The notes under the pieces: model-generated
Database searches by the model: none
What the model saw: the letters and a program-made list of their open reading frames with translations, nothing else
What the model was told of the DNA's origin: nothing
Shown here: positions 3,474 through 60,071 of the stretch, in pieces
Layout: each line of letters opens with the position of its first letter
Numbering within the stretch: position 1 is the first letter of the stretch
Source: Chiloscyllium plagiosum
Lineage: Eukaryota
Length of the DNA stretch: 64,000 bases
Assembly: GCF_004010195.1 (NCBI RefSeq)
Contig: NC_057723.1
Span: 38,328,241 to 38,392,240, forward strand
Direction: 5' to 3'
Position numbers and translations under genes: made by a program

Positions 3474-5668
3474 ATAGAACATAGAACAATACAGTGCAGA
3501 ACAGGCCCTTTGGCTCTTTATGTTGTGCCGATCTGTGAACTAATCTAAACCCATCCCCCTACACGATCCCATCATCATCCATACGCTTATCCAAGGACTG
3601 TTTAAATGCCCCTAAAGTGGCTGAGTTAACTACATTGGCAAGCAGGGCATTCCATGCCCTTACCATGCTGAGTAAAGAATCTGTCTCTGACATCTGTCTT
3701 AAATCGATCACCCCTCAATTTGCAGCTATGCCCCCACCACTGTACAAACTGATGTCATCTAAGGAAAAAGACTCCCAATGTCCACCCTATCTAATCCTCT
3801 TGTATGTATCTATTAAATCCCCTCTTAACCTTCTTCTCTCCAACGAGAACAGACCCAAGTCCCTCAGCTTTTCCTCCTAAGACAGTCCCTCCAGACCAGG
3901 CAACATCCTGGTAAATCTCCTCTGCACCTTTTCCAATGCTTCTACATCCTTCCTGTCATGGGGCGACAAGAACTGTACACAATATTCCAAGTGAGGCCAC
4001 ACTAGCTTTTTGTAGTTACAGCATGCTCCAGAACTTAATTCCTCTACCAATAAAACCTAACACACCGTATGCTTTCTTAACAGCACTATCAACCTGGGTG
4101 GCAACTTTCAGGAATTTATGTACATGGTCACCAAGATCCCTCTGCACATCCACACCACCAAGAATTTTTCCAATGACCCAGTATTCTGCCTTCCTGTTAT
4201 TCCTCCTAAAGGGATCACCTCACATTTAGCTGCATTGAACTCCACTTGCCACCTCTCAGCCCAATTCTGCAGTTTGTCCCCCCTACAACATTCTTCCATA
4301 CTGTCCACCACTCTAACAACTTCAGTGTCATTTGCAAACTTACTAACCTATCCACCTATGCCTGCGTCCAAGTCTTTTATAAAAATGACAAACAGCAGTG
4401 GTCCCAAAACAGATCCTTGCAGCACACCACTAATAACCGGACTCCAGGCTGAATATTTTCCATCAACCACCACTTGGTGCCTTGTTCCAGAAAGCCAGTT
4501 TCTAATCCAAACTGCTAAATCACCCTCAAACCCATGCCTCCACATTTTCTCCAAAAGCCTATCATGTGGAACCTTCTCAAAGGCTTTACTGCGCTTTACA
4601 CCAACTGCCCTACTCTCATCCACATGCTTGGTCACCTTCTCAAAAAACGCAATGAGGGTTGAGAGACATGGCCTCCCCTTGACAAAACCATGTTGACTAT
4701 CTCCAATCAAATTGTTGCTTGCCAGACAATTATAAATTCTATCTCTTATAAACTTTCCCAAAAACTTTTCCTACAACAAACGTAAGGCTCACTGGTCTAT
4801 AAATTACCTGGATCACCTCTACTGACCTTCTTGAACAAGGGCACAACATTTGCAATCCTCCTGTCCTCTGGAACTAAACCTGTAGACAATAACGACTCAA
4901 AGATCATGGCCAAAGGCTCCACCATCTCCTCCCAGCTTCCCAGGAATTGGATAAATCCCATCCAGCTCCGGGGACTTATCTACTTGCACACCTTCTAGAA
5001 TTGATAACACCTCCTCCTTACTAACCTCAATCCTTTCCAGTCTAATATCTCTTATCTGATTCTTCTCCTCTCCAATATTCTCCTTTTCCAGAGTGAAAAA
5101 CCAATGAGAAATATTCATTTAGCTCCTCTCCAGTCTCCACAGGGTCCACACACAACTTGCCACTTATGTCTTTGACTGGCCCTATTCCTACCCGAGTCTT
5201 CCTTGTATTTCTCACATACCTATAGAAAGCTTCAGGGTTCTGCTTTATTCTACCTGCTAAAGACTGCTCATGCCCCCTCCTTGCTCCTCTTAATTCTGTC
5301 TCTAAATCCTTCCTAGCTAATCTGTAACTCTCCATCGCCTCATCTGAACTATCTTTTCTCAACGTCACATAAGCCTCCCTCTTCAGCTTAACAAGAGATA
5401 CAATTTCTTTAGCAAACCGCGGTTCCCTTACCTGATCACTTCCTCTCTCCCGACAGGGACATACATATCAAGGACATGCAATATCTGTTCCTTAAACCAG
5501 CTCCACATCTCAACTGTCCCCATTCCCTGCATTTTGCTACCCTATTCTATGTCTCTTAAGTCTTGCCTAATCGCATTATAATTGCTCTTACCCTGTAGCA
5601 CGTACCTATCCCTTTCCATTGCTAAACTAAACATAACCGAATTATGGTCACTCTCTCCAAAGTGCTCA
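3474..5668 (-). mobile_element. 5'-truncated CR1 LINE, younger, frameshifted
   Basis: Minus-strand ORFs contain [26 protein letters not shown] and WAERWQVEFN. Tandem (catagaa)n 3' tail at ~3474-3490. Confidence 0.9.
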
Positions 5669-5803
5669 CTAAATGAAACTTACACAAGAAATTTGGAAGG
5701 CTAAAAAGGGGCCATGAAATTCCTATGGCAAATAAGATTAAGGAGAATCCCAAGGCATTTTAGACACATAGTAGGAGCAAAAGGTTAATGAGAGAAAGAA
5801 TAG

Positions 5804-5938
5804 AGAAGGGCTGATGAAGGGCTTTTGCCCGAAACATCGATTTTCCTGCTCCTCGGATGCTGCCTGACCTGCTGTGCTTTTCCAGCACCACTCTAATCTA
5901 GATTCTAATTTCCAGCATCTGCAGTCCTTGTTTTTACA
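5804..5938 (+). mobile_element. Penelope-derived mini-insertion carrying a hammerhead-ribozyme-like core
   Basis: CTGATGA-A-GGGC-TTTT-GCCC-GAAAC-ATC at 5811-5838. Flanking duplication gagagaaagaatag (5790-5803) / gagagaaagagtag (5939-5952). Confidence 0.75.
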
Positions 5939-7644
5939 GAGAGAAAGAGTAGGTCCACTCAAGGATCATGGAGAGAATTTATGCCTTGAACTACAAGTAG
6001 TCAGTGAAGCCCTTAATACATTTTAAAAGTCAGTATTCACCAAGAGGGACGTGGGTGATGCTAAGATTTTTAGGTGGTCTCTGTGCGTCCGTGATATTGA
6101 TATTAAAGTCATGTTGTTGGCTGTCTTGAAAACAATTATGACTGATAAGTACCCAGGTCCCGATGGGACCGACCTTAGGATGCTGACGGAGACAAGGTAA
6201 GAGATTGCCTCGACCTTGACAGAGAATTTTGTATCCTCTTTCACCGCAGGCAAGGTCCTAGAAGATTGGCTATTCTCCAATGTTGTTCCTTCGTTTATGA
6301 AGGGCAACAGGGATAATCTGGGTAATTATAGACTCATCAGCCTTACATCAGGGATGGGGAAATTGGAGAAATAGGCTGGTCCAGAAGATTAAGTCACATG
6401 GAATCCAAAGCGAGTTGGAAAACTGAATAAAAAACTGGCTTGATCAAAGAACTCAGAGGGTAGTTGTGCAGGGTGTTTTTTTCTGATGGAGATGTGTTAC
6501 CCGGCATTCTGCAAGGATCAGTGCTAGGACCTCTTGTTGTAATATACATAAATAATTTAGATAAAAACATAAGTGGTCTGGTTAGTACTTTTGCAGATGA
6601 TATTCAAATTGGAGTTGTGGATAATGCAGAAGGTTGTCAAAGGATGCAGCAAGATACAGGTAAGTTGGACAGAGAAATTGTAATTGGAGTTTAATCCATT
6701 AAAGAGAGTGAGGGGATGTATTTTGTGGTGTCAAATGCAAAAGGAAAGTATCTAGTAAATGGTAAGCCCCTTAAGAGCGTGGACATACAGAGGGATTTTG
6801 GGGTACACATCCATAGTTCCCTGAAAGCAGCAACACAAGTAGCTAAGGTGGTAAAGGAGGCATACCACATGCTTGCAACTGTACAAGACTTTAGTTCGGC
6901 CACATTTGGAGTACTCGTGTGAAGTTCTGGTCATCATACTATAGGATTATGGAGGCTTTGGAAAGGTACAAAAGAGATGTTGCCTGGATTGGAACATATT
7001 AGTTAAGGAGAGATTGAAGTAACACTACAGCATCAGAGGCTGAGGGACAACTTATGGAAGCATATAAAATTATGAGTGGCATGGCTAGGGAGTCTTTTTC
7101 CAGGATGTGGGGTGGGGGTGGTGAAGAATTTAAAAAGAGATGCTCAAGGCAAACTTTGTTTTTTTTTTAAAACAGAGGGTGGTAGTTGGCCTGTAACATG
7201 CTGTAGGTAGTAGAAGTAGATCCAATAGCAACATTTGAAGCATTTAGACAGACATGAATTGGCAGGAAATACAATGATATGAACCATGCCCAAGCAGATA
7301 GTATTAGCTTTCAATGGCATCACGGTTGACACAGACATGGTGGGCCAAAAGACCTGTTCCTGTGGTGTACTGTATATCCTCTCCTTTCCTTTGCAGATCC
7401 AAAACTCATTTGCCTACACTGAAATCCACTCATCAGGTTTAGCCATTTAATCTGGGAGTCTTCCCAGTTTTAAGCTTCCAGCCATACTCCTTAGAATGCT
7501 TCTTATTTGCGTAAATTTGGATACAAGGCTCTCCATACCATCATTCAAATGCCCAAATCAAGTTATACACTGATAAAAGACTGTCATGTTACACTAGTAT
7601 TTAGCCATCATTCAAGAACGGTCAACCACAAGAAGGTCTCTCAC

Positions 7645-7790
7645 CTCTTGCCTGCCTCCGGAACAAGCCAGTGACAATGGTGTATCCTTGGTGCGTTCAG
7701 ATTGCGCTTCAATATCTGCTCCTTTGTCCAACAGAATTTCTACAACGCCAACGTGACCAGCAGTAGCAGCCAAAATAAGTGGAGTAAAAC
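7645..7790 (-). CDS. ANKHD1: ANKHD1 exon ~18 (146 nt): (G)FTPLILAATAGHVGVVEILLDKGADIEAQSERTKDTPLSLACSGGRQE
   Basis: gttag|GT acceptor, GAG|gtgag donor. Confidence 0.96.
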
Positions 7791-8908
7791 CTAACCAGAT
7801 GAAAAAGAGAGAACCATTTTAACTGGCAAAATAGCTAACCTGTTTTTACGTGACTAGTCTGGTTAATAAAATAGGATTTCCATTCTGCATTCTTGAGTTC
7901 AACCATTCTGTAGTGGAAGACATCAAATGACTCTAAATGGGAGTTTTTGTTTGTTTACTGTACAGCACATAGTTACACTGATGAGCCCCCTGTGACTTTT
8001 CAAGTAGTGAAACACTTCTGGATGTCATTAGATGATTTCTGTATCTAAGAGTACTGCCAAACCCAATATCATATTTTGCTAACTATTATGAGTCAAGGGC
8101 AGAATAACAAACAACGATCTTCCAAACAAAATCTCAAAAATATTCCCGTATTTGGATGAATACATGAAACTTCGGGTATTTTAAATTCAAATCTGAATTT
8201 GAAAGCATCCCACAATCCATTGTATCAATCAAACAGTAGCGAGGTTTATGCTCACTCATTTCGTAAGGTTCCATATATAGCTAGTAGGTGAAATTGCAAC
8301 TCCTTGCTAAATAGTTATACTAAACTACAGACTTCTCAAAATAGAATGTCAAGATTTGCTTACCAATTCAATAATCAAAATGACTCTCTCACTCCAAAAG
8401 ATCAGATGGGGTACAAAGTAAATATCAATATAACAGTTTAATCAAGGAACAATCTCTATATGGATGAGTCACCAATACTGTTTTTAAAATTAGTGGAATC
8501 TGCACAGCCTTCTAGAGACAATGGCCACTGACAACACATGCCAAACATCTGAACTGGTCATGTTTACTAGCCCTGGTTGGAGAATTAAGAGCTTTACTTT
8601 GCACAGTCCAGTAAAGCAGCTCTGCTTGGAGAAAGGAGTTGGAGTGTCTGTTAAAATAGTGAGATGAAATAATGTGGAATGAAAATCTTGCGGAAGCTGA
8701 ACACTTGTATGAACGCATTTGGTCAGTGGCCTGCTTCCATGCTTTAAAGCATACAAAGATATTGTACGTAAGTAGCCTAACTGCTTTCTAATCCTCCCTG
8801 TGTCCTAACGCAAAGGTCAGATTTACAGCTGTAAAAAAAAGTCTTAATATTTCAACTACCAATAAACACCCCAATTACTCAAAAGCAGTTTCAAGTCACA
8901 TAAAGAAA

Positions 8909-10110
8909 GGGTAGCATAATGGTAATATTAGTGGACAAGTGTTCCAGATGCCACAAATAATGTTCAGGTGGGAGAAGTACAATTCCCACCAAGACAACGA
9001 AGAGAAATTAAATCCAAATAATTAATATAAGTGGAATAAAACAGTCCTATCTTTAAAAAAATCATTTGTACGTGTCACTGGCTGGGCGTTTATTGCCAAA
9101 CCTACTTGTCTTTGAGAAGGGGTGGTGAGCTGCCTTCTTGAACCTCTCCACTTTATTTTTGGTCGACTCATCATGCTGTAAAGAGGAATTCCCAGGATTT
9201 TGACACAGAAATACTGAAGGAGCAAGGATGTTTTCCAAGTCAGTCCTGGAGGGGAAATTACAGGTGGTGTTGCTCCATGTATCTGCTGTCCTTGTCCTTC
9301 TATAGTTTTAGTTGTGGGCTTTGAAGATGCTGTTTAAGTAGCCTTGTTGAATTTCTGCAGTGCATCTTGTAGTACACAGAACTATCACTAAACATCAACC
9401 TCGGACACACGGAATGTTTATGGCTATAATGCTAATCAAGCAAGCTGCTTTGTTCTGGTTGGGTTTTTATAACAACCGGCAATAGTTTCAGTCATTGTTG
9501 AACTTTTAAATCCAGATTTTTGCTGAAGTCAAATTCCACTATTTGCCAAGGCGGGACTTGAACTGGTGTCCATAAAACCACAAGATGGAGGAACAGAAGT
9601 AGGATATTCAGCCCATTGTGTCATTCAGTGAGATCATGGCTGAACTAATAATCCACAACTCTGCTCTGCTACCTTTCCTCCATACCACGGATTCCTTTAC
9701 TGATTAAATATCTTCCATCTCAGCCTTTAATATACTTAATGACTGAACCTCAACAGCCCGAAGGTAAAGAATTCCACAGATCCACTACCCTCAGAAGAAA
9801 TTGTCCTCATCCCTGTAGTAAGTGTGAGACCCCTTACTAAGATTATGCCCTCTGTCTGAGACTTTCCCACAAAGAGAAATAATCTTACCACAGCTACCAA
9901 CTCCTCCAAGAATTCTGCATCTTTCATTAAGGCTGGCTTTCATTTTTCGATATTCCAACAAGTACAGACAAGTACAATTTACTCAATCGCTCCTCACACT
10001 ACAATCACTATACCTAGTATCTGCCATTCAAACCTTCCATGCCCCAAGAACACTATCTGGCTCCCTAGATAACTAAATCAGTGATAATACAACAATGCCA
10101 CTACCATGAT
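8909..10110. mobile_element. Cluster of SacSINE/Deu-type tRNA-headed SINE pieces (plus-strand head 8909-9060; minus-strand copy 9060-10110 interrupted by a CR1 tail ~9576-10020)
   Basis: Head gggtagcataatggtaatattagtggac. Tail ggtggtgagctgccttcttgaac is shared with 44925-45420 and, reversed, with ~37770-37860. Confidence 0.6.
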
Positions 10111-10499: not shown

Positions 10500-11569
10500 C
10501 TAAGTAGAAAGACAGCACATTCAGTAATGTAGGAACGATTAAGTGCATAATACGGATTCAAATATTCAAAGCAAGGAATAATATTTATACCTGTCACGAA
10601 GACATAAGAACACAGGAAAAACAAATAAAAAGCCTTTGCGCCCTGCAAAACTGTTTATATTAAGAGCTTGGTTCTTCATCTACTTAAGTAACGCATTGCA
10701 GCATTTCCCCAATATCCCCAGATTCCTTTAGTACCCAAGTACTTGTTGATGTTTTACCATCTTATACATCATTGCACTAGTTATGTTCACTAATACAGTT
10801 CAATCTCGAAGTCTTTTTCGGTTTCTGCTGGAAGGATGAATTGACAAATTCCCAAGACCTGCTGGATTTCAGCAAGCAAAATAGTTAAATGCATTAGTTT
10901 TAATTCACCAAAACCTGACTGGAAATTATCTAATCCAATTATTTATTCAAACAGGGAGGTAGGCAGTTTGCTGTTTAACATTTTCTCTCTGACAACTGTT
11001 AAAAGTTTAATATCTATTAAAAAGGTATTGCAAAGCACTTGGATAAGTTCAAGAAATTGGCAGGGCCAACATGGTTTTGTCAAAGGAAAATCATTTAGCT
11101 TAGTTATTGGAATTCTTTGAAGTAGTAACTTGTGCTGGAGGTAAGGAGGAACCAGTGCATGTACTATTCTTTAATTTCCAGAAGGCACTTAATAAAAGTG
11201 CCACAGTAGAAGGTGATTGCAGAAAATGAATGCTTATGCATATGCTGGCAATAAGTCTCAAGTAGTATGGCACCAGCATCAGTGCTGGGGTCTCAATTCT
11301 TTATATTTTATATAAACGACTTGGATGAAGGGGCTGATTTTATCATTAGTAAATCTAGCCGAGTTATGAAGAGGACATAAGGTGTCTATAAAAGGAATAC
11401 AGAAGGTTACGAGAATAGGCAAACATCTGGCAAATGGAGTACAATGTTGAAATGTGTGAACTTGTCCATTTTGGCAGAAAGAACAAAAGAAAGCATATTA
11501 TCTAAATGATGAGAGGATGCAAAGCTCTCAGATGCAGAGATTTGGGCATCCTAGTGCTTGAATCACAAA

Positions 11570-11781
11570 CTTAAAAATGTGTTGCTGGAAAAGCGCAGCA
11601 GGTCAGGCAACATCAAAGGAACAGGAGAATCAACATTTCGGACATAAGCCCTTCTTCAGGAATCTGGCATATGCCCGAAACATCGATTCTCCTGTTCCTT
11701 TGATGCTGCCTGACCTGCTGCGCTTTTCCAGCAACACATTTTTAAGCTCTGATTTCCAGCATCTGCAGTCCTCACTTTCTC
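11570..11781. mobile_element. Palindromic Penelope-derived insert (77-bp inverted arms) with a hammerhead-like core
   Basis: Arms 11570-11646 and 11670-11746 are reverse complements with 5 mismatches. TSD cttgaatcacaaa (11557-11569) / catgaatcacaaa (11782-11794). Confidence 0.8.
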
Positions 11782-12373
11782 CATGAATCACAAAGTTAGG
11801 ATGTAAGTATAACAAGTAATCAGGAAAGCGAATAGAATATTATGGTTTATGGAGAGGGGAATTGACTGCAAGAGTAGGGAGGTGATGGTTTAGTTCGATA
11901 CAAGTGTGACAGCATCTGGAGTACAGTACTGATCACTATACTCAGGAAAGGATTTAATCCCTTGGAAGCACTCAAAGTTTACTAGACGAATAAGTTGACT
12001 GCCTTCTGAGAAAAGACGACCTATATACACTGGAAATTATGAAGTTAGAGGTGTGATATTCAAAATCATGCAAGAGATTGAGGGGATTTGATGGGTGGAT
12101 GTCGAAAGGATACTTCCTCTTGTGAAAGAATCCAGAATAAGTGGTCATAAAGAGGGAGTTTTTAAATTAAAATCTCACTGTTGAATACCTTTGAAATTCC
12201 AATCCTCAAAAGAAAGCAAATGCAGAATCTTTAAACAATTTTAAGGGAGAGGTTAGATTAGACTCTTGATTATCGAGGGGATGAAAGATTATCAAAGATA
12301 TGCAGCAATGTACATGTTAAAATCAGATCAGCCATGATGTTATTAAATAGTGGAGCAGGCTCAAAGTGGACTT

Positions 12374-12507
12374 CTCATTCGTGAAGAAGGGCTCATGCCC
12401 GAAACGTCGATTCTCCTGCTCCTCGGATGCTGCCTGGCCTGCTGTGTTTTTCCAGCACCACATTTTTCAACTCTGGTACTCCAGCATCTACAGTCCTCAC
12501 TTTCTCC
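12374..12507 (+). mobile_element. Penelope-derived mini-insertion with a hammerhead-like core
   Basis: gTGAAGA-A-GGGC-TCAT-GCCC-GAAAC-GTC, followed by the same gatgctgcctg.cctgctg...ccagcatct.cagtcctcactttctcc tail as the other copies. Confidence 0.75.
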
Positions 12508-12592: not shown

Positions 12593-12914
12593 TTAGATTA
12601 GATTAGATTAGATTACTTACAGTGTGGAAACAGGCCCTTCGGCCCAACAAGTCCACACTGCCCCGCCGAAGCGCAACCCACCCATACCCCTACATGTACC
12701 CCTTATCGAACACTACGGGAAATTTAGCATGGCCAATTCACCTGACCTGCACATCTTTGGACTGTGGGAGGAAACCGGAGCACCCGGAGGAAACCCATGC
12801 AGACACTGGGAGAACGTGCAAACTCCACACAGTCAGTCGCCTGAGGCGGGAATTGAACCCGGGTCTCTGGCGCTGCGAGGCAGCAGTGCTAACCACTGTG
12901 CCACCGTGCCGCCC
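12593..12914 (-). mobile_element. Full-length HE1/V-SINE-type tRNA-derived SINE (young)
   Basis: Minus strand GGGCGGCACGG-TGGCACAGTGG (A box)...GGTTCAATTCC (B box), V-domain GGAGTTTGCACGTTCTCCC, and (TCTAA)n tail. Confidence 0.92.
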
Positions 12915-28845: not shown

Positions 28846-29176
28846 TAGAATCATAGAATTTCTATGGAAACAGGCCATTCGGCCCAATAAGTCCACACCA
28901 CCGCTCCAAAGAGCATCCCACCCAAACTCATCCCCCTTTCTCTATTCCTGTAACCCTAATATACACATTTCTGGATACTATGGGCAATTTAGCATGGCTA
29001 ATCCACCTGACCTGCACATCGTTGGACTATGGGAGGAAACTAGAGCATCCAGAGGAAACCCACGCAGACACCAGGAGAATGTGCGAACGCCACAAAGAAC
29101 CGCTCAAAGCTGGAAGTGAATAGGGGTTCCTGGAGCTTTGAGGCAGCAGTGCTAACCACTGAGCCACCATGCTGCC
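28846..29176 (-). mobile_element. HE1/V-SINE-type SINE
   Basis: Same head (ggcagcagtgctaaccactgagccacc) and tail (ggaaacaggcc.ttcggcccaa) as 12593-12914. Confidence 0.9.
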
Positions 29177-43689: not shown

Positions 43690-43938
43690 TGGGTGACTGT
43701 CTGTGTGGAGTTTGCACGTTCTCAGTGTCTGCGTGGGTTTCCTCCGGGTGCTCTGGTTTCCTCCCACAGTCCAAAGATGTGCAGGTCAGGTGAACTGGCC
43801 ATGCTAAATTGCCCCATAGTGTTAGGTCAATTAGTCAAAGGGAAGTGGGTCTGGGTGGGTTAGTCTTCGGAGAGTCAGTATGGACTGGTTCGGCCGAACG
43901 GCCTGTTTCCACACTGTAGGGAATCTAATCTAATCTAA
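43690..43938 (+). mobile_element. 5'-truncated HE1/V-SINE-type SINE
   Basis: tgtgtggagtttgcacgttctc...gcctgtttccacactgtagggaatctaatctaatctaa; inserted in a CR1 tail fragment. Confidence 0.9.
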
Positions 43939-47932: not shown

Positions 47933-48133
47933 AGGTGTTGTATATACAATTGAGATGGAAGATAGATCTGAAAACACAGCATTGTATGGTGTAATCTGTA
48001 ATGTAAGCCTGTTTCCACACTGTAATGTAATCTGTAATCTGTAATGTAATCTGTAATGTAATCTGTAATCTGTAAAAGGTGTTGTATATACAATTGAGAT
48101 GGAAGATAGATCTGAAAACACAGCATTGTATGG
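47933..48133. repeat. Perfect 57-bp direct repeat flanking an 87-bp (TGTAA/TC)n array with a SINE/LINE tail
   Basis: 47933-47989 is identical to 48077-48133. The insert contains gcctgtttccacactgtaa (48007-48025). Confidence 0.92.
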
Positions 48134-51111: not shown

Positions 51112-52720
51112 AGATGTCTTGAAATGGTTAAAGGTTAAAAATCCCAGGACCTGAGAACTCTGTGGGAAGCTAGAGAAGTGATTGCTGGGCCTCTTGCAGA
51201 GTTATTTGTATTATCGATAGTCACAGGTGAGGTGACGGAAGACTGGAGGTTGGCAAACGTGGTGCCACTGTTTTTTAAGAAGGGCGGTAAAGACAAGCCA
51301 GGGAACTACAGACCTGTGAGCCTGACCTCGGTGGTGGGCAAGTTGTTGGAGGGAATCCTGAGGGACAGGATGTACATGTATTTGGAAAGGCAAGGACTGA
51401 TTAGGGAGAGTCAACATGGCTTTGTGCATGGGAAATCATGTCTCACAAACTTCATTGAGTTTTTTGAAGAAGTAACAAACAGGATTGATGAGGGCAGAGT
51501 GGTGGACATGATCTTTATGAACTTCAGTAAGGCATCTGACAAGGTTCCCCACGGGAGGCTGATTAGCAAGGTTAGATCTCATGAAATACAGGGAGAACTA
51601 GCCATTTGGATACGGAACTAGCTCAAAGATAGAAGACAGAGGGTGGTGGTGAAGGGTAGTTTTTCAGACTGGAGGCCTGTGACCAGTGGGGTGCCACAAG
51701 GATCGGTGCTGGGCCCTCTACTTTTTGTCATTTACATAAATGATTTGGATGCGAGCATAAGAGGTACAGTTAGGAAGTTTGCAGATGACACCAAAATTGG
51801 AGGTGTAGTGGACAGCAAAGAGGGTTACCTCAGATTACAACAGGATCTGGACCAGATGGGCCAATGGGCTGAGAAGTGGCAGATGGTGTTTAATTCAGAA
51901 AAATGCGAGGTGCAAATCTTAGCAGGAGTTATACACTTAATGGTAAGGTCCTAGGGAGTGTTGCTGAACAAAGAGACCTTGGAGTGCAGGTTCATAGCTC
52001 CTCGAAAGTCGAGTTGCAGGTAGATATGATAGTGAAGGCAGCGTTTGGTATGCTTTTGTTTATTGGTTAGAGTATTGAGTACAGGAGTTGGGAGCTTAAA
52101 ATTGTGTTGCTGGAAAAGCGCAGCAGGTCAGGCAGCATCAAAGGAGCAGGAGAATCAACGTTTCGGCAGGAGTTGGAGGTCATGTTGCAGCTGTACAGGA
52201 CATTGGTTAGGCCGCTATTTGAATATTGCTTGTAATTCTGGTCTCCTTCCTATCGGAAAGATGTTGTGAAACTTGAAAGGGTTCAGAAAATTTGAGCTAC
52301 AGGGAGAAGCTGAACAGGCTGGGTGGTTTTCCCTGGAGCATCAGAAGCTGAGGACTGACCTTATAGAGGTTTACAAAATTATGAGGGGCATGGATAGGAT
52401 AAATAGACAAAGTCTTTTCCCTGGGGTTGGGCAGTCAAGAACTAGAGGGCATAGGTTTAGGGTCTTAGGGGAAAGATATAAAAGAGACATAAAGGGCAAC
52501 TTTTTCAGGGTGGTATTTATATGGAATGAGCTGCCAGAGAATGTGGTGAAGGTTGGTAAAATTGCAACATTTAAGAAGCATCTGGATGGGTATATGAATA
52601 GGAAGGGTTTGGAGGGATATGGGCCGGGTGCTGGCAGGTGGGACTAGATTGGGTTGGGATATCTGGTCGGCATGGACGGTTGGACCGAAGGGTCAGTTTC
52701 CATGCTGTACATCTCTATGG
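51112..52720 (+). mobile_element. 5'-truncated young CR1 LINE, ORF2 RT broken by stops and frameshifts
   Basis: ORFs 51178..51621 (PGNYRPVSLTS, SQHGF), 51643..51954 (GVPQGSVLGP, FADDTK) and 52273..52647 (RTRGH, AGRWD*); CR1 3' UTR follows. Confidence 0.93.
52095..52166 (-). mobile_element. 72-bp Penelope-derived insert (3' half of the hammerhead motif)
   Basis: Matches the left arm of the 11570 element. TSD caggagttgggag (52082-52094) / caggagttggag (52167-52178). Confidence 0.8.
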
Positions 52721-59742: not shown

Positions 59743-60071
59743 TTAGATTTACATTCCCTACAGTACGGAAACTGACCCTTCGGCCCAACAAGTCCACACT
59801 GACTGTCCGAAGAGTAACTCACCCAGACCCATTGCCGTATCCTATATTTACCCTTGACTAATGCACCTAACACTATGGGCAATTTAGCACTGCCAATTCA
59901 TCTGACCTGCACATCTTTGGATTGTGAAAAATCCGAACACCCAGAGGAAACTCATGCAGACACGAGGAGAATGCACAAACCCCACACAGACAGTCACTCA
60001 AGGCGGGAACTGAACCCAGGTCCCTGGCGCTGTCAGGCAGCAATGCTAACCACTGAGCCACTGTGCCGCCC
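59743..60071 (-). mobile_element. HE1/V-SINE-type SINE
   Basis: Head ...ctaaccactgagccactgtgccgccc and tail ttagatttacattccctacagtacggaaac. Confidence 0.9.

Follow-up and report, generated by a model that had tools for sequence, protein, structure and literature searches.

The intron of a shark gene contains a 135-bp insert (5804-5938) with what appears to be the catalytic core of a hammerhead ribozyme, and this raises the question whether the insert is a ribozyme-bearing element in its own right or a piece of something larger. It lies in a 64,000-nt stretch of the Chiloscyllium plagiosum genome, which was analysed as a whole and is called the window here. A sequence-only reading had favoured the first option and proposed a recently mobile, protein-less, retrozyme-like family inserted by a Penelope reverse transcriptase (RT) with a GIY-YIG endonuclease. 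Our analysis leads with high confidence to a different answer, namely that the insert is the dead-on-arrival, 5’-truncated terminal module of an autonomous-type, endonuclease-positive Penelope-like element (PLE) of Neptune type. The features are listed in Table 1. Relative positions are counted from C3 of the core (5811) as 0, with the predicted cut after +27.

Table 1. Features of the insert, its surroundings and the related loci in the window.
Feature	Position	Strand	Remarks
Left target-site duplication	5790-5803	+	14 bp; 13 of 14 positions identical to 5939-5952
Right target-site duplication	5939-5952	+	Pairs with 5790-5803
Non-element 5’ addition	5804-5810	+	One A and a 6-nt repeat of 5816-5821
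Minimal type I hammerhead core	5811-5838	+	C3 is 5811; predicted cut after 5838
Rest of pLTR and ‘tail’ of a probable Neptune-type Penelope-like element	5839-5937	+	Identity to ORF-bearing copies
Decayed CR1-like LINE ORF2 remnant, recipient of the insert	5665-6618 (approximate extent)	+	tblastn
ANKHD1-like host gene	1212-38553 (exons mapped; gene extends beyond)	-	Exon mapping
Head-to-head pair, older subfamily	11570-11783	both	- arm without tail, + arm with tail
Older-subfamily stub with tail	12376-12507	+	C3 changed to G
Older-subfamily stub without tail	52092-52166	-	Without the 5’ half of the core (CUGAnGA)

The insert, its LINE host and the target-site duplication (TSD), which matches at 13 of the 14 positions claimed, are real. 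The LINE, which we take to be a CR1, is recognised by tblastn matches at 5665-5793 and 6168-6365 to two LINE frames elsewhere in the window, of which one contains RVT_1, and its part at 6448-6618 resembles the LINE at 51631-51806. A second LINE remnant (4301-5467, - strand) lies side by side with it (5665-6618, + strand, containing the insert) in opposite orientation. The first 7 of the 135 bases are not element sequence, and 127 bases are element-derived. In the focal copy the addition stands in place of the 5’ arm of stem I. The surrounding intron is flanked by the ANKHD1-like exons 7791-7627 and 1373-1212 on the minus strand, and since the insert is on the plus strand the hammerhead motif is antisense to its host.

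The slipped 5’ variant of the focal copy is found elsewhere as well, with 173 exact genome matches vs 36,153 for the normal 5’ flank. The first 30 matches listed carry tails from several subfamilies and have differing flanks, which fits repeated slippage of the RT and not a single master. In one case (L167-L170, G000:C4:37.98 Mb) at least four copies of the slipped variant, which share one flank, lie within 2.3 kb. The stub was here multiplied together with its flank in a tandem array. A preprint derives retrozymes from seeds of such a tandem-array kind (bioRxiv 10.64898/2026.07.22.740005).

The hammerhead core with a 4-bp stem II is confirmed by one match of the proposed pattern in the window vs none in 100 shuffles. 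It consists of CTGATGA (5811-5817), an extra A (5818), stem II of 4 bp with the loop TTTT (5819-5830), GAAA (5831-5834) and C-A-T-C (5835-5838). A search with the hammerhead models of Rfam gave nothing at gathering score in the window and, between 5700 and 6000, nothing even at E up to 10. Minimal motifs fall outside those models, so that the negative result does not count against the motif. The majority of the family shows every feature published for minimal PLE hammerheads, in line with the Penelope-type hammerhead suggested earlier. The extra base after A9 and the pair G10.1-C11.1 are present together with the catalytic core letters, the palindrome CGT-C is found in 74 of 149 family motifs, most others being CpG decay products, and helix I consists of C2.1-G1.1, U-A and then U.U (U-A in subfamily C). 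In all three families the six bases around the cut site (window 5836-5841) come close to a palindrome (GTCGAT/GTCGAC, GTTAAC, GTTGAC). Folding predictions let natural copies form a self-duplex there, which would compete with the active dimer; alternatively, the site could be a DNA element ~30 nt past the putative RNA start considered below.

The focal copy has the weak stem I and the lost CpG that had been pointed out from its letters. G2.1 stands opposite G1.1, which keeps stem I from starting, and a G to A change at 5836 (CpG decay) has destroyed the palindrome. Owing to these two defects the focal copy is very probably inactive, i.e. not catalytic. Genomic copies in general decay neutrally. 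Of 159 arms selected solely by the downstream box 90 are colinear; in these, core sites differ in 33/900 cases vs 25/900 at other sites (p 0.35), and core sites are not protected; CpG sites differ in 72/540. The complete hammerhead motif is kept in 27 of these 90 arms. With ~2.4% non-CpG decay per base in the best-kept copies and no intact full-length frame among the loci fetched, the family is recently mobile in a loose sense only.

The recurrences proposed at 11570, 12374 and 52095 are indeed related loci (83-89% identical). They belong to older subfamilies, and none of the three has a clean core. The pair at 11570 is flanked by direct repeats (11559-11573 / 11784-11798); its arms span -4 to +80 and +9 to +117, and the G-U pair of stem II sits on the minus arm. 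The stub at 52092 has a perfect 10-bp TSD (52082-52091 / 52167-52176), and no TSD of at least 10 bp is found at the 12374 locus. It had been argued that the loop varies while stem II pairing is kept. The loop variation stands; stem II, however, is invariant among the window copies, so its retention there is no evidence of covariation. Related families, as defined by motif matches, do show real covariation: a family with a 14-nt stem II region has U2.1-A1.1 for C-G in 16 of 19 among the matches listed, and U-A for C-G inside stem II is seen in this 14-nt family as well as in one of 11 nt (assessed by eye on the first 100 of 5,175 matches). Two further repeats of the window are separate from these loci, a dispersed ~300-bp repeat (12598-12914, 28863-29176, 43690-43938 and 59743-60071; copies 73-86% identical) and a perfect 57-bp direct repeat (47933-47989 / 48077-48133) spaced by 144 bases.

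The identity of the unit follows from its longer relatives. A search of the shark’s own genome with the unit gave 2,394 candidates, 40 of which were scored. Sequence of the pLTR lies upstream in at least 9 of the 30 nearest copies, and four extend into a coding region. The common upstream sequence reaches up to 1,155 bases (L018 vs L019) and encodes YIDD and GIY-YIG motifs. An autonomous-type Penelope partner with the same terminus, as anticipated in the sequence-only reading, is thereby found: focal positions 5811-5937 are identical to the 3’ ends of four ORF-bearing copies in 121-122 of 127 bases. The longest gap-free frame among the loci fetched (725 aa, L058) contains DKG, YIDD, a CxxxxCxxC linker and GIY-YIG, and matches RVT_1 (E 2.8e-6) and GIY-YIG (E 6.5e-4) with Pfam scores that are both below the curated cut-offs. 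CxxxxCxxC precedes GIY-YIG in L058, L059, L035 and further frames. The closest named relatives of the frame are from Chiloscyllium (91%), Rhincodon (68%) and Mobula (69%), and full-length relatives of 750-950 aa are 42-51% identical.

Walking upstream we reached L078, which has the order truncated pLTR, hammerhead, tail and ORF start. The tail-to-ORF junction has 999 exact genome matches, the ATG is located ~155 nt downstream of C3, and 4 of 15 informative junction loci have 50-101 nt of pLTR ahead of the core. This is the pLTR-ORF-pLTR layout of endonuclease-positive PLEs. Because the unit passes without a break into an RT/GIY-YIG frame on its upstream side and into the ORF start on its downstream side, it is the PLE’s own terminal module. 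The insertion is rightly ascribed to a Penelope RT/GIY-YIG, and a separate protein-less family is not supported. The Cys-rich linker is described as a feature of Neptune or Nematis (PMC8557442), of which Neptune and not Nematis is reported in vertebrates (bioRxiv 10.64898/2026.07.22.740005); the probable assignment to Neptune rests on this motif. A complete intact element was not recovered, with no intact full-length frame among the loci fetched and assembly gaps inside long copies, and frames of 1,100-1,690 aa were rejected as intact ORFs since they are runs of N. In two chimeras (L028, L180) the pLTR, just ahead of the hammerhead, is fused to the initial part of the ORF. These are either internally deleted derivatives or template jumps.

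Upstream of the core a pyrimidine tract followed by CAG/G at -17 is kept in the young lineage while its neighbours vary (L019:1480-1490, L078). Among the reads and contigs examined no GT..AG splice joint was found. We also considered that the tail might end in a 3’ splice site, and dropped this idea because most junction matches listed read CTCG and not CTAG. In D. virilis an intron reportedly ends at helix I.

Stubs of this kind are very abundant. Tail similarity was detected at 49 loci in 378,445 non-N bases (40 fixed-position stretches), which extrapolates to ~4x10^5 related stubs if distant families are counted. For the young lineage alone, a single 19-nt string from the core gives 49,705 exact matches, and a first look for the RT gave 59,917 candidates. 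The copies are dispersed, not tandem. Head-to-head pairs make up 14 of 53 loci (window included), and 13 of the 14 are asymmetric by alignment, one arm ending at +112 to +126 and the other at +80 to +103. A TSD is present in 44 of 73 short arms vs 1 of 73 in a flank-swapped control; the insertion TSDs are 9-22 bp, mostly 11-16 bp, in length. Two 3’ ends are favoured, +116 to +135 (66/123 young-lineage arms) and +75 to +99 (45/123), in a sample that is enriched by the searches and in which arms of one insertion can count twice.

Both favoured 3’ ends are located 10-20 nt downstream of a repeated CCAGCA, which is pairable with an upstream TGCTG (window 5856-5919). In the predicted fold of the focal tail an outer stem (5856-5862/5913-5919) encloses an inner hairpin (5870-5874/5883-5887). 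The CCAGCA/TGCTG pairing may be a candidate recognition structure for the RT. Two-sided changes in the tail stems are seen in 2 of 20 pairs, in one sequence each, and this near absence speaks for conserved sequence, not for proven structure.

Most of these properties have precedents. Minimal hammerheads are reported in the pLTRs of metazoan PLEs, including Neptune, Poseidon and Xena of fish (Cervera and De la Pena 2014, PMC4209133). The shark motif is like those described there in its core letters, the extra nucleotide after A9, G10.1-C11.1, a palindromic 15.2-16.2 and a short helix I, whereas the focal copy is without the 5’ arm of helix I. The same paper describes thousands of dispersed single motifs from truncated PLEs and some opposite-strand pairs, as seen here, but the shark copy number is far above the 4,000-9,000 it gives for coelacanth and frog. 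The insertion units described for endonuclease-positive PLEs (Craig et al. 2021, PMC8557442; Arkhipova et al. 2013, PMC3846280) resemble ours in the partial tandem pLTR, the inverted 5’-truncated copy, a tail on one end (theirs 30-40 bp), TSDs of about 8-15 bp and the Cys-rich linker of Neptune/Nematis. A sharp 5’ cluster at the hammerhead front, as in our stubs, is not among the features described for them. Three sources (PMC8557442, PMC3846280, PMC8969392) give inverted arms, TSDs and a one-sided tail as PLE features.

The closest functional parallel is PAc, a Poseidon element of Anolis, in which two internal RT start sites are reported to account for the tails (Frangieh et al. 2024, PMC11167929). 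As in that report, two putative internal starts match the genomic 3’ ends, the hammerhead is close to the pLTR-ORF junction and no RNA ends lie at the cut site. PAc belongs to another clade, however, and its ORF is described as beginning at stem II, unlike the shark ATG far past C3. A further comparison paper is PMC6155905. Our literature search covered papers; it returned no paper on the shark family or on 5’-end clustering at a hammerhead, and the family may well be catalogued already. Minimal pLTR hammerheads, 5’ truncation, inverted arms and tails are thus already published for PLEs, and the 5’ cluster at the core is the one oddity.

For the 5’ ends 81 arms were examined and 59 kept, the other 22 being dropped for low score, N or locus edge. 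Out of these 59 arms, 37 end at -10 to +9 with the mode at -4/-3, the remainder being distributed over -99 to -11 (2), positions further up (9) and +10 to +50 (11). Such sharp clustering is not what random truncation gives. Exact genome-wide counts, corrected for a decay of 0.976 per base, show that 80% of young copies pass the interval from 0 to -4, 56% that from -4 to -12 and 94% that from -20 to -33. This corresponds to per-base losses of 5.6%, 7.3% and 0.5%, where the 7.3% figure is inflated by subfamilies with a different upstream sequence and the 5.6% figure is not. The hazard at the cluster is about tenfold genome-wide. About half of the young copies nevertheless continue upstream past the cluster, which rules out a fixed 5’ end. 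Ribozyme cleavage was considered as the source of the 5’ ends and rejected, since only 2 of 59 arms end at +26 to +30 around the cut site.

In the reference sequences of A1 (the majority), A2, B, C and E3 the cluster coincides with an A at -4 inside a YYANWYY string. YYANWYY is the initiator consensus. Our first sorting of subfamilies was too loose, as its group D mixed families, and was used for B, C, E, A1 and A2 only. In two presumed-RNA runs, contigs join ORF positions to -5/-4 and look as jumps from the end of a template would. The reads show no pile of molecule starts or ends; a transcript start would not be visible in contigs or in a polyA single-cell library, so that this result counts neither way.

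We propose the following course of events. The element’s own protein would nick the DNA and, by analogy to PAc, prime reverse transcription at one of the two internal sites in the tail. Most cDNAs would end at -4 to -8 since the template RNA would have its start at this place, the initiator-like motif, and at the RNA end the RT may slip or jump, which would produce the 6-nt repeat of the focal copy. The hammerhead would be under selection only in master elements. We give an RNA start with run-off as the cause of the 5’ cluster slightly less than an even chance. The run-off step is contradicted by the junction loci. Among 20 tail-to-ORF junction loci 5 are gapped, 10 end inside the tail and 5 reach the core; of the latter one ends at the cluster (-3) and four extend to -50 to -101, compared with 37 of 48 short arms at the cluster (p 0.019).

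This result would be reconciled by a model with strong-stop and transfer. Here the PLE transcript would start 4-8 nt ahead of the hammerhead, and the RT would prime at the 5’-proximal copy of the tail and run off, generating a cDNA of 90-135 nt. Transfer of this cDNA to the identical 3’ module would then build the partial-tandem pLTR, like the retroviral R. Failed transfers, either single or twin-primed head-to-head, would leave hundreds of thousands of SINE-looking stubs. Taken as a whole this reading is possible but rather doubtful.

Two other origins of the cluster leave the terminal module as such untouched. The GIY-YIG endonuclease might cut the element’s own DNA at the ATT at -4 to -2 while the intermediate is resolved. 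The modal end at -4/-3 would suit such a cut, the endonuclease of PAc is reported to favour an ATT motif that lies downstream from the junction between ORF and pLTR (PMC11167929), and loose read and contig ends pile up at -4, partly because other subfamilies diverge there. However, nearby ATT sites (+29 and about -40) have no cluster, and the slips and jumps at the end resemble polymerase events; we consider a cut of this kind unlikely. The other origin is an RT that comes to a halt and dissociates at the 5’ edge of a hammerhead that is folded, or bound by protein, within a longer RNA. A stop of this kind agrees with the position of the cluster at the 5’ arm of stem I and, if leaky, with the share of young copies (about half) that get past it, and the PAc protein is described to assist hammerhead folding (PMC11167929). 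Yet a polymerase arriving from the 3’ side should rather be held up on meeting a helix at its 3’ foot (+19 or +31), a stall that is not seen among the 59 arms, and only a weak fold is predicted (z of -1.3 to -1.7 in three natural copies and +0.9 in a fourth). The chance of this explanation also appears low.

A separate, non-autonomous SINE- or retrozyme-like family with an internal promoter, remobilised in trans by the PLE protein, would be suggested by the very many short copies with a common 5’ end. It can draw on reports of an internal promoter in Penelope of D. virilis (PMC2377424), of rotifer pLTRs that can act in trans (PMC3846280) and, in a preprint, of animal retrozymes traced to pLTRs (bioRxiv 10.64898/2026.07.22.740005). 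But ORF sequence is attached in the references of A1, A2, C and E, all of them long copies, and subfamily B continues upstream for 75 nt or more. The 5’ variant of the focal copy turns up in several subfamilies and next to differing flanks, no end cluster is present at the cut site, and RNA reads come from both strands with 93% continuing into unrelated sequence. Moreover PAc is described to need RNA downstream of its priming sites (PMC11167929), which the stubs would lack if this holds across clades. The stubs do share with non-LTR retrozymes (PMC7229834; bioRxiv 10.64898/2026.07.22.740005) that they are short, non-coding and pLTR-related and carry a type I hammerhead. Retrozymes, as described there, are tandem repeats of 150-450 bp processed cut-to-cut into circles, whereas the stubs are dispersed or head-to-head, bounded by the tail and the core front, and continuous with a coding parent. 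No head-to-tail array of stubs is found among the 53 loci, L134 carrying only a pLTR-internal duplication. Tandem units, cut-defined ends and the lack of a parent ORF all fail here, and a family of this kind is very unlikely. Finally, there is next to no chance that the focal copy is a working intronic ribozyme acting on the host transcript: the invariant core letters and stem II are all intact, but it is antisense to the ANKHD1-like gene, the G2.1/G1.1 mismatch blocks stem I, the palindrome is lost, genomic copies show no sign of selection, and minimal hammerheads are described as inactive as monomers (PMC4209133), with cleavage in related work being low and dimer- or protein-dependent (PMC4209133, PMC11167929, PMC6765202).

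The assignment to a terminal module corrects a tempting misreading, as the uniform, short, TSD-flanked ribozyme inserts in sharks are the ends of an autonomous PLE, while automatic annotation would class such stubs as SINEs or retrozymes. How the pLTR and the head-to-head arms are built is an open point of the PLE cycle. If the 5’ cluster does reflect an RNA start combined with strong-stop, it would provide a testable answer to this question, for which tens of thousands of young junctions are a ready data set.
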